Assembly: GCA_026395755.1 (NCBI GenBank)
Contig: JAPLYC010000095.1
Coordinates: 1-12,208 of the forward strand
DNA: 12,208 bases
DNA from: Candidatus Parcubacteria bacterium
GTDB taxonomy: Bacteria; Patescibacteriota; Patescibacteriia; CAIXNZ01
Direction of reading: 5' to 3'
The position numbers and the translations under genes are program-made. The notes beneath the pieces were generated by a model. It was not told the origin of the DNA, made no database searches, and worked only from the letters and a program-made list of their open reading frames with translations. Positions 3,497 to 6,400 of the stretch are shown piece by piece. Each line of letters begins with the position of its first letter. Position 1 is the first letter of the stretch.

Positions 3497-6400
3497 ATGG
3501 TAGCAGAGGTCAGAAAAAGTCCATTGTTACTCGGACAGTTTGTCTGGGTGGCCAGTAAAAAGGACGGCACGATCAAGTTGATTATCGGGCCGGATCCTTT
3601 GGAAGTTACCGAAGACGATATCCCCATGATGCCCAATGCCCAGAATCCCTGGGAATTCGGGCCTGTGGAGATCACTCAAGCGGTGCAGCGCTTTGTTACG
3701 CTCAAGCCCCATCAGTACGCCGTGATTCATAATCCGGTTGATTCTGATACTGACACAGATTACCCGAACGGCAAGTACAACAAGGGCAAGAACGAGATGA
3801 AGCCCCTGAAATACGGCACCAAGAGAGTCGTGATTGCCGGTCATTTCCCGGTTTGGCCGGGACAATGGGTGGAGGTCAGAGAAATCCATCGTCTGGACTC
3901 CAAGCAATACATAACCGTCGTGGTGGAAAAAGTGCCGGTCGATGTAAAGGCTCCTTATTACGAGTTGACTGTAGCCTGCGCTGACATCAAGAAGGCAGTG
4001 GTCGATGAAAATACTGTCAGCAAAGAACCGGCCAAAGAAGTCGTCAACGAATCCGGAAACGATCCGGCCAAGGGAACAGAATCCGCTCAAAATCAAAATT
4101 CCAGTCAGCCGGCAGCTACTTCGGAAAAACCACAGGCCACAGTTCAGCCGGCAGCTACTTCGGAAAAACCACAGGCCAAAGTGCCGGAAAAACCGCAGGT
4201 CTCGCCTCTGGAAAAAGGGGTATCAGGTAAAGATCCAGATGCACCGGTTTTCAAGGTCGGACAAAGAATCATTATCCCCGGCAGCAAGACCGAGACTTAC
4301 ATTCCGCCGACCGGGATTGAGGTGGACAGGAATAAGGCTGTCAAACAGCCGGAATCCACGCGCCATCTGGATCCCAAGGAAGAGCTGCAGGATAAAATCA
4401 CGTCTGGCCAGATCAAGATCGAGACCATGGAGCAGCTTATAAAACGGGTTGGCCTGGAAGATGATCTTTTCGAGGCAGTCCGTGATAGATACACCAGTCT
4501 GCGTGAAGCAGGCAAGAACCGCAATGCTTTATATGAGGCGATCACATCGATATTCGATCGTTCTCATCTCATGAAGCTACTTTCCATTTTTATGGAAAAT
4601 ACCGCTGTCAATCAGCAGGCAACCAGAGACTCGGACGAAGCCGTGTGTGAAGCTGTGGTTTTAGGCCCCACCGAATTCTGCGTGGTTGTGGATGAAAACG
4701 GCATGCCGAATTCGCACAAGGGTCCTGGCCGGGTTTTCCCCGGTCCCAATGACACCTTCCGCACGCAGGGTTCTCGAAATCGCGTCTATGACGCCTATCA
4801 TCTGCGCGAAGATCGCGGCCTGCTTTTACGGGTAGTGGCTGATCAGATCACCAAGAAGGATCTGCTCGAGAAACTGCCTGAAGCCGTGGCCAATCAGCTT
4901 AACAAGGAAAAATACACCAAGGGAGATGAAATTTTCATCTCCGGCTTCGATGCCTACCTGGTGCCTTATTACAGCGTCTTTGAGGTCATTGACCCGGAAA
5001 CCAGGAATCCCCATATCGGTAATTCCCATGGCGGGGTTTATGTCCAGGCCATAGGCATCGATCAAAAAAGCGGTATCTACGTGATGAAAGTAGAAACCGG
5101 GGAAGTGGAACTGGTCAAGGGCAAAGCAAAGCTCCTGCTGGATCCGCGTAAACAAAAGCACATGAAACGGCGGGTACCGGGCAAGATTTGGAATCTGCTC
5201 ATCGGTTATGGAGAACCTCACAAGGCCGTCAGTCCGGACTCGGTGGTGGAATCACCCTGGGCGTTATCAGTTCAGGTACCCAATAATATGGCCATGCTTC
5301 TTACCAGTCGCACTGGCCGGCGTGTTGTTCTGGGACCTCAAACCACCTTGCTGGAGTTTGACGAATCACCTGAGATTCTCCACATTTCTGTCAATCGTCC
5401 CAAAACAGAAAAAGACACCAAACAAACGGTTTTCCTCTGGGTAACCGGCAATCGGCCGACTGACCAGGTGGAACTGATTACCGCTGACAAGGCTGTGATC
5501 AAAGTCGATGTTCAGTACGAGGTGGAATTTTCCGCCTCGGATCCCAAGGAACAGGAAAAATGGTTCCTGTACAAAAACTATGTCTGGATGCTGGCATCCA
5601 ATGCCCGCAGTCGGCTGCGCAATGCGGCCGAGCAGGTGTCGTTTGCCGTGCTGAAGGACAGCATTTCCGAATTTGTCAGGAATGTGATCCTGGGCAAAAA
5701 ACCTGAAGGCGTCGCTCATCGGCCGGGACTGCCATTTGAAACTTGCAATCTGCGGGTTACGGAAGTGGAAGTCCTGGACTGGGTGGTGGATGATCCGGAG
5801 ATTGCCAAAGCCTTGGCAACGGCCAATAAAGCGGCGGTAAACCGGGAAATTCAGGTCGGCGAAGAAAAATCCGCTCTGGAAGCGGAACAGGCCAAGGATC
5901 AAATCGCCGTGGAGAAAGCAGCTCTGGTGCTGCGTCAGACCAAGCGGTCGGCCGAAACCGAACTGGGCAAAAGACGCATCGTCGACGAGAGCGAAAAGTC
6001 GGCCTTGCAGATTTCCCAGGAGCGCGAAGCCAGGATGGCTGAGGCCGAACTTACCAAAAGCCGACTGGTTGAACAAACGGCTGCTGTCAAAGACGAGATC
6101 AACATCGAGGCAGCCAAAAGAACCGCGGCAGCTCAGCTGGAGCAGTCTCAGATCATTGACCAGAAAGCGGCCAAGGAACTGGAACTGAAAAAAGCCGCTG
6201 CTCTCAGAGATGCGGCAGCCAAGGAAGAAATCAACAAGCAAGAGCAAGCGCTGAAGAAATTGGTGGTCGAGCTTCAGCAGGAGATCGAGCTGATTCGGCT
6301 GGCAAACTGCTCTGTGCTGAGTCTCAAACAGCAGGAGCTGGATATCAAGATGTCCGATGTCAACCGTGAGCTTCACGAAAAAGACACCAGATCCCAAATG

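Follow-up and report, generated by a model that had tools for sequence, protein, structure and literature searches.

The MVP homolog and its linker

The DNA considered here is a complete contig of 12,208 nucleotides (nt) from a Candidatus Parcubacteria bacterium (GenBank assembly GCA_026395755.1, contig JAPLYC010000095.1), termed the window. Its largest open reading frame (ORF) encodes a homolog of the vault protein MVP, and within the N-terminal repeats of this protein there is a long linker, predicted to be disordered, which carries a 39-nt tandem duplication. The features of the gene that concern the linker are as follows.

3497-6757, + strand: ORF of the MVP homolog, 1086 amino acids (aa), the largest of the window
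3497-6757, + strand: architecture of the product, with N-terminal beta repeats, a helical module, more repeats, an SPFH-like shoulder and long cap helices
3866-4015, + strand: N-terminal half of the R3-equivalent repeat, residues 124-173, ending in the conserved AVVDE motif
4016-4249, + strand: disordered hypervariable linker, the putative enlarged tip of the R3 beta2-beta3 hairpin, residues 174-251, 78 aa
4016-4060, + strand: proximal linker, residues 174-188, VSKEPAKEVVNESGN, weakly resembling the Patescibacteria motif S-x-[DE]-x-E-K-[IL]-K-[IV]-x-D-[VIL]
4105-4143, + strand: tandem unit 1, 39 nt (codon register 4106-4144), peptide QPAATSEKPQATV
4144-4182, + strand: tandem unit 2, 39 nt (codon register 4145-4183), peptide QPAATSEKPQAKV
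4185-4199, + strand: third copy of the unit core, partial and degenerate, CGGAAAAACCGCAGG, PEKPQV
4250-4327, + strand: C-terminal half of the R3-equivalent repeat, the canonical vault-repeat end, residues 252-277, FKVGQRIIIPGSKTETYIPPTGIEVD

The ORF product is a true homolog of MVP, and its sequence is the same (100% identity) as that of NTX82_06570, listed at NCBI as a hypothetical protein of a Candidatus Parcubacteria metagenome-assembled genome (MAG). The SPFH-like shoulder domain MVP_shoulder (Pfam PF11978) matches residues 654-762 with an E value of 1.3e-16 and 61.2 bits against a cut-off of 25. A phmmer search of PDB finds the rat, human and rabbit MVP chains in three collinear pieces, the best at 1.2e-21 (rat), and HMMER aligns query residues up to 910 with rat MVP residues up to 794. 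An AlphaFold2 model of the protein, built as a monomer on 84 homologs, has a mean predicted local distance difference test score (pLDDT) of 79. Foldseek matches the model over its own full length with the rat, human and rabbit vault chains at E 1e-26 to 1e-32, and with mouse R1-R7 at 1e-12. Residues 7-280 and 383-650 are modelled as an all-beta repeat stack except for a few short helices, mostly with pLDDT above 85, and the shoulder is followed by long cap helices at 767-893 and 902-1017. The Pfam families Vault_2, Vault_3 and Vault_4 match the protein only below their cut-offs, and there is no PADLOC, PHROGs or NCBIfam match. No signal peptide or transmembrane segment is visible in the sequence. 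The minor components of eukaryote-type vaults (PARP, TROVE/TEP1 and vault RNA) were not found in the window by Pfam or by Rfam, which gave only a tRNA, and the set of PARP4, TEP1 and vault RNA alongside MVP, as in the eukaryote-type vault particle, is thus missing from it. PDB searches did not find a structure of a bacterial MVP homolog.

An earlier note on this DNA, made from the sequence alone, described a disordered insert rich in P, Q, A, S, T, E and K at about 4020-4260 in the vault-repeat region, and this description is supported. The conserved anchors AVVDE(N)T (residues 167-173) and FKVGQRIIIPG (252-262) set the limits of the linker at residues 174-251 (4016-4249). The stretch with pLDDT below 50 runs from 173 to 247, with block means of 28-45, and both flanks are above 88. 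The peptide that the note had quoted is present in the ORF translation. The linker is rich in P, A, S, K, E and Q, has 74% disorder-promoting residues, lacks F, W, Y, I, M, C, H and R, has a net charge of -2, and falls on the disordered side of the charge-hydropathy (Uversky) boundary. In the family alignment its columns are gap-rich with conservation below 0.2, although its position is conserved. Model confidence, composition and column conservation all place it among intrinsically disordered low-complexity linkers. The GC content of the linker equals that of the remaining gene and there is therefore no sign of foreign DNA; a foreign origin was rejected on this ground.

The proximal linker differs somewhat from the rest. 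Gap fractions at columns 174-192 are lower than in the linker centre, and the motif that residues 174-188 weakly resemble is visible in the linkers of many Patescibacteria relatives. Judged from these sequences, the proximal linker is possibly a remnant of the first hairpin arm.

The 39-nt tandem duplication

The earlier note also reported a perfect 39-bp tandem duplication within the insert. The duplication is present, but it is near-perfect and not exact. Tandem Repeats Finder and a repeat search both give a 39-nt unit in 2.0 copies, 4105-4143 and 4144-4182, which are 97% identical (38/39). In the codon register that the note had used, 4106-4144 and 4145-4183, the copies are identical at 37 of 39 positions, with C at 4140 against A at 4179 (Thr to Lys) and T at 4144 against G at 4183 (synonymous, Val). 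The longest exact run shared by the copies is 35 nt, and the number of exact matches of this length that chance would produce in 12.2 kb, at offsets of 10-200 nt, is about 2e-15. With only one or two differences in 39 nt, the duplication was rightly considered recent. It is in frame and adds 13 residues; without it the loop would have about 65 aa, which is within the range of the family.

The tetrapeptide EKPQ occurs three times. The unit core has three matches at no more than one mismatch, with none expected in shuffled sequences, and the third of them, the degenerate copy CGGAAAAACCGCAGG, is the trace of an older round of duplication.

A scan of metagenome contigs and of genome contigs with the exact 27-nt repeat core gave no match in either collection, and a protein-based scan of the metagenome contigs gave 165 pattern matches, none of which was confirmed. 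The 90% identity cluster of the window protein (P0001) has a single member, and an exact-protein look-up gave no further record. In the metagenome and genome collections scanned, at the DNA and the protein level, the closest relative is 51% identical.

Position within repeat R3

Alignments from both sides of the linker place it in the third vault repeat. By phmmer, query residues 62-126 align to rat MVP 46-106 (R1-R2), and residues 266-276 (ETYIPPTGIEV) align to rat 149-159 (GTYIPQKEVEV), the end of R3. An N-terminal family profile without the linker columns was aligned by hhalign to human MVP 1-549, a sequence 100% identical to PDB 11dr_A, and is collinear with human MVP 1-173 (probability 74%, E 2.9e-5). 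In this alignment KAVVD falls on human KALLD (124-128), the linker falls at FEDKDGDK (129-136), VFKVGQRIIIPG falls on human 137-147, and TYIPPTGIEV falls on ten human residues. The AlphaFold2 strands on either side of the linker are at 168-170 and 257-261, and the alignments place the linker between strands 2 and 3 of R3, before the motif G-x-x-W/I-L/I-x-x-G-P...Y-I-P.

Both halves of the repeat are well modelled. The N-terminal half (pLDDT 88-92) has strands at 124-129 and 137-143, a helix at 155-162 and the short strand at 168-170; its columns are conserved and hhalign places residues 124-173 at about human MVP 107-128. The C-terminal half (pLDDT 91-93) has columns 93-100% conserved at G255, Q256, I258, I260, G262, P271 and G273. 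With moderate confidence, the phmmer and hhalign alignments identify the linker with the R3 beta2-beta3 hairpin. Two proposals of the earlier note need revision in this light. The insert does not interrupt a boundary between vault repeats but appears to lie inside R3, in place of the beta2-beta3 hairpin tip. Nor is it without a metazoan counterpart, as a short acidic R3 hairpin tip corresponds to it (human FEDKDGDK, 129-136).

Several other comparisons did not reach this region. The linker-deleted R3 fragment gave only noise against PDB, chiefly designed 'Pizza' beta-propeller proteins, and no family in Pfam. The full-family profile aligned with PDB entries or human MVP only from R6 onward. 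Short fragments aside, none of the 150 best family representatives exceeded ∼31% identity with human MVP in those full-length alignments that were inspected. A eukaryote-type MVP profile built from these 150 was rejected, as none of them is eukaryote-type.

The architecture of the MVP repeat indicates why this site might be permissive. Each repeat consists of five antiparallel strands (Querol-Audi et al., 2009, PMC2752026). Of the loops, that between beta2 and beta3 'shows the highest variability' and is 'protruding', with an extra hairpin in R3-R5 that in R3 takes up positions 130-146; its acidic residues are 'totally exposed to the solvent', and in R7 the loop is partly disordered (PMC2752026). 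Lateral contacts are made by the beta1-beta2 and beta3-beta4 loops and the interdomain linker, and interdomain contacts by strands beta2 and beta3 and the beta4-beta5 loops (PMC2752026). The R3 beta2-beta3 hairpin thus stands outside both the side-by-side and the end-to-end packing, and would be free to vary. Together, the mapping and the absence of the beta2-beta3 loop from the contact lists put the insert inside R3, at a loop tip not engaged in packing.

Linker variation across the family

A linker is found at the same site in 83 of the 84 aligned homologs, which are mostly from Patescibacteria, plus Myxococcota; apparent exceptions are poorly aligned or N-terminally incomplete entries. The earlier note had reasoned that an insert missing from related bacteria, at a site predicted to be buried, would suggest an assembly artefact. 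The situation is the reverse, with a linker in nearly all homologs and a site that is predicted to be exposed. Nearly all aligned homologs have a linker of 12-84 aa; the median length is 43 aa and the maximum 84, and the window linker (78 aa) is the second longest of the set. The pooled composition is rich in E, A, K, S, D, P, G and T, with a median net charge of -4 and a range of -18 to +1.

The supposition that the insert tolerates changes in length is borne out both across the family and between close relatives. In 77 loci from GTDB species representatives, linker length divides by taxon. In Myxococcota, Planctomycetota and similar groups the linker has 10-28 aa, with modes at 15 and 20. 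Those loci whose proteins cluster with the Patescibacteria homologs, one of them labelled Gammaproteobacteria in its record, have 31-56 aa, and the Patescibacteria protein set reaches 84 aa. Where two proteins share 83-92% identity outside the linker, identity inside it falls to 41-62%, and the linker lengths differ by up to 17 aa, for example 59 against 44 aa and 46 against 29 aa. One of these homologs (locus L083, protein P0044) has a 15-nt in-frame tandem repeat of 3.6 copies (84% matches) at 3165-3218, in the equivalent linker, and differs from its 83%-identical relative (L084) by a clean 51-nt in-frame indel there. Loop growth through tandem duplication is thus documented twice independently, once in the window and once in L083.

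Interpretation of the linker

Compared with a known variable loop, the insert differs in degree only, and it is ordinary for a disordered surface loop. Probably, the linker is a permissive, disordered R3 hairpin loop that grows by in-frame duplication and acts as a generic spacer at most. Changes in length would come about as tandem duplications and deletions that keep the frame, with slippage during replication or unequal recombination as the probable mechanism. The event in the window would have added 39 nt, or 13 residues, so that a loop of ∼65 aa, already bearing an older and eroded EKPQ repeat, reached 78 aa. Selection would keep only the reading frame and a polar, proline-rich composition that neither folds nor collapses. 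If a vault-like cage forms, each subunit would contribute one loop to a ring two repeats away from the waist, where the loops would most plausibly serve as an entropic or electrostatic spacer of a general kind and not as a sequence-specific module.

Several observations weigh against this interpretation. The mapping to R3 depends on a profile alignment of moderate probability (74%), hhalign with the linker columns kept preferred a repeat-shifted alignment (human 170-337), and the Pfam repeat models do not extend to the linker region. Among the 84 aligned proteins only that of the window has a long recent internal repeat, and in the sequences duplication is not obviously the dominant route of linker change. 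An acidic linker of at least ∼10 aa has been kept across deep divergence, which hints at a role beyond mere tolerance, and the weak Patescibacteria motif in the first ∼15 linker residues might dock in an assembled oligomer. In addition, we know of no assembly state, expression or structure for any bacterial MVP homolog.

Other explanations were weighed against the permissive loop. The loops might face the lumen as tethers that recruit or retain protein or nucleic-acid cargo, with loop length tuning the reach and the QPAATSEKPQA unit acting as the binding element. This is unlikely, even though the latitude is that of a cargo site in eukaryotes: in human vaults the MINT domain of PARP4 follows 'an acidic stretch' in R3-R4 where it docks on luminal R3-R5 (PMC12280208). 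The retention of the linker in nearly every bacterial homolog, and the conserved acidic helical protein encoded just upstream in both the window and its closest relative, also speak for a tether. However, the linker centre has no sequence conservation, the repeat unit is unique to the window protein, and linkers that are mostly acidic would be poor at binding nucleic acid. The vault interior is moreover 'relatively smooth and acidic' (PMC12280208), in contrast to a beta2-beta3 loop that is 'protruding' (PMC2752026), and the named luminal PARP4 contacts Q164, R169, Q172 and D214 lie outside the hairpin (PMC12280208). The protruding loop, the smooth interior and the position of the PARP4 contacts off the hairpin hint at an exterior location; the vault structure papers and reviews consulted do not state which face, lumen or exterior, the R3 hairpin occupies. 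An exterior brush under diversifying selection, in which the loops mediate or evade contacts with a membrane, a host cell, phage or other particles and their turnover is adaptive, accords with this hint from the literature of an exposed, protruding hairpin. It also accords with the linker evolving much faster than other parts of the protein and differing in length between close relatives, and with the loop being enlarged specifically in Patescibacteria. Patescibacteria are known as episymbionts, which likewise counts in its favour. Fast turnover, however, is the default of unconstrained disordered loops and is not evidence of positive selection. Any particle would also be cytoplasmic, given that neither a signal peptide nor a transmembrane segment is visible; an adaptive brush is improbable.

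Two further possibilities concern the repeat itself. That the second 39-nt copy was made by the assembler is suggested by the metagenomic origin of the contig and by the presence of the duplication in a single sequence with no second sample. Against this, the copies differ at one or two positions, and they share an exact run of at most 35 nt within an array of 78 nt, less than the length of a typical read or of the larger k-mers that common assemblers use. The duplication is also in frame at 13 codons, loops of 31-84 aa are normal for the Patescibacteria relatives, and L083 has a comparable in-frame repeat in the same loop, all of which leaves an artefact with very little probability. A contingency locus for phase or antigenic variation, in which the copy number switches at high frequency, would likewise have a tandem repeat inside a coding region, and the earlier note did suggest that the copy number varies between strains. 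But a hypermutable repeat is not what is seen, as the 39-nt unit is in frame and present in no more than 2.0 copies, its length being a multiple of three that allows no frameshift switching; no homopolymer or short-unit array is present and no variant copies were found in the collections scanned. Phase variation, which is highly unlikely, was rejected on the ground that there are only two copies of an in-frame unit.

A more speculative extension of the permissive loop can also be formulated. In Patescibacteria the R3 hairpin might form a ring of long polyampholyte 'tentacles', one for each subunit, near the waist that captures a lineage-specific partner or cargo, with its reach tuned by in-frame duplication; we regard this as a long shot. 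If true, the acidic helical protein encoded at 2365-3441 would be one candidate partner or cargo, and the tentacles, together with the helical module that replaces the PARP4-binding R4-R5, would constitute a distinct, prokaryote-specific mode of cargo loading for vault-like compartments.

Comparison with known systems

The nearest known counterpart of the window linker is the R3 hairpin of eukaryotic MVP (positions 130-146, the former 'EF-hand' region; PMC2752026), whose position it shares by alignment. The eukaryotic beta2-beta3 loop resembles it in being the most variable, protruding, acidic, solvent-exposed and free of packing, and in being partly disordered in R7 (PMC2752026). The mammalian hairpin tip has ∼8 ordered residues (FEDKDGDK), whereas the window has 78 residues that are predicted to be disordered. 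The window linker further differs from the mammalian tip in being rich in Pro, Ala, Ser, Lys and Gln, in its net charge of only -2, and in its recent tandem duplication.

Mammalian MVP has two other flexible loops, residues 429-449 of R8 and residues 608-619 of the shoulder, which crystal and cryo-EM maps leave unresolved (PMC13347060). They show that vault shells tolerate disordered loops. These loops, in contrast, are in other domains, have 12-21 aa and have no reported variation by tandem duplication. A similar composition, in P, A, K, E and Q with a proline every three to six residues, is known from the linkers between lipoyl domains of 2-oxo-acid dehydrogenase E2 and from the Pro-rich spacer of TonB. 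By analogy, this composition suggests that the window linker is an extended, non-collapsing spacer. There is no homology to the E2 and TonB linkers, which join separate domains, whereas both ends of the window loop return to one small beta domain.

Bacterial MVP homologs have been reported from Myxococcales, gliding Bacteroidota (Cytophagales/Saprospira), Herpetosiphon and cyanobacteria (Oscillatoriales) (Daly et al., 2013, PMC3762200; Sokolskyi, 2019, bioRxiv 10.1101/872010), and also from gut phages (bioRxiv 10.1101/2023.11.10.566534). The earlier-reported bacterial proteins share the repeats, the shoulder and the long coiled coil with the window protein. In a family-profile search the homologs of Plesiocystis, Nannocystis and Polyangium have a linker at the same site that is short, 10-28 aa. 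The window protein differs from the homologs reported earlier in coming from a Parcubacteria MAG, in its helical module and in a longer C-terminal coiled coil. A full-text search gave no paper, in the library covered, that pairs MVP with Patescibacteria or the candidate phyla radiation, which is not proof of absence. The MVP homologs of Patescibacteria are a large and diverse family and apparently have not been described before.

By itself the insert is of little consequence. What it reveals is a place at which an MVP-type shell accepts arbitrary sequence, the R3 beta2-beta3 hairpin tip, and it offers a neat small case of a loop growing through in-frame tandem duplication. Perhaps engineered vault nanoparticles could use the hairpin tip as a natural site for display or insertion. 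The context is of more value than the insert, and the main new aspect is the Patescibacteria-specific architecture, which in comparison with eukaryotic MVP has an expanded R3 loop, an optional helical module at R4-R5 and an extended coiled coil. A tractable prokaryotic system with natural length variants at defined sites would help to test what the assembly of the shell wall needs.

Other modules, gene neighbourhood and distribution

Two additional features of the window adjoin the regions described above.

4328-4651, + strand: five-helix module, residues 278-385, directly after R3, at the position of eukaryotic R4-R5
2365-3441, + strand: acidic helical protein, 358 aa, very acidic, with internal repeats LELDD[ED]..IPED..., just upstream of the MVP gene

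The helices of the five-helix module are modelled at 293-377 with pLDDT 86-96, and the module has no Pfam or NCBIfam match. The query alignment to human MVP resumes at residue 273 after it. A helical module of ∼100-125 aa is found in about two thirds of the homologs, and in about one third the segment has only 5-32 aa, making it a second, optional indel site. The R4-R5 position that it takes is the PARP4/MINT docking site in eukaryotes.

The C-terminal part (about 6170-6757, residues ∼890-1086) also varies. The region after the shoulder has ∼320 aa in the window protein against ∼237 aa in most relatives. The break at 894-901 between the modelled helices 767-893 and 902-1017 suggests a helical hairpin or an extended cap. 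The same C-terminal extension is present in seven other homologs (P0002, P0003, P0009, P0010, P0013, P0016 and P0050).

The acidic protein encoded at 2365-3441 has no Pfam, NCBIfam, PADLOC or PHROG match. It is homologous (26% identity, E 9e-24) to a 302-aa protein encoded directly upstream of MVP in the closest relative (L082), in which the downstream HlyD-ABC-FtsX genes are also syntenic with those of the window, at 48%, 81% and 67% identity. The acidic protein may be a partner or cargo of the MVP homolog. The window neighbours were not found beside MVP in 80 genome loci, and only L082 is syntenic.

In another sub-lineage the MVP homolog (P0044/P0045) is preceded upstream, at a distance of two or three genes, by a PARP gene that encodes 476-482 aa with WGR, PARP regulatory and PARP catalytic domains. 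The two contigs (L083, 37-5457; L084, 5803-10766) come from different samples. Between PARP and MVP there is a conserved AbrB/MazE-like protein of 227-229 aa, plus a 128-aa ORF in L083. This adjacency is found only in the L083/L084 sub-lineage among 84 loci and echoes the vPARP of eukaryotic vaults. The L084 neighbourhood (SLT, HD, dNK, homing endonuclease and SNase) may be viral.

There are 427 confirmed loci of MVP homologs among GTDB species representatives. Representative clusters, other bacteria included, number 782 at E<=1e-3 and 334 at <=1e-30. The homologs are numerous in Patescibacteria MAGs and occur also in MAGs labelled Nanoarchaeia or archaeon, which are DPANN-labelled (P0054, L011). 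Three huge uncultured phage genomes of 462-735 kb (LR756500.1, LR756501.1 and LR756503.1) give weak MVP-like tblastn matches, with 29-31% identity over query residues 347-878 and E values of 1e-16 to 3e-20.

Elsewhere in the window, the ORF at 811-1920, which encodes a C-terminal PEP-utilising mobile domain, has its mechanical TTG start inside a tRNA-Glu(CTC) at 748-820; the real start of this gene is therefore further downstream. AT-rich intergenic tandem repeats are found near both contig ends, at 186-247 (14-nt unit, 2.3 copies, and 8-nt unit, 2.4 copies) and at 11771-11899 (8-, 10- and 20-nt arrays).

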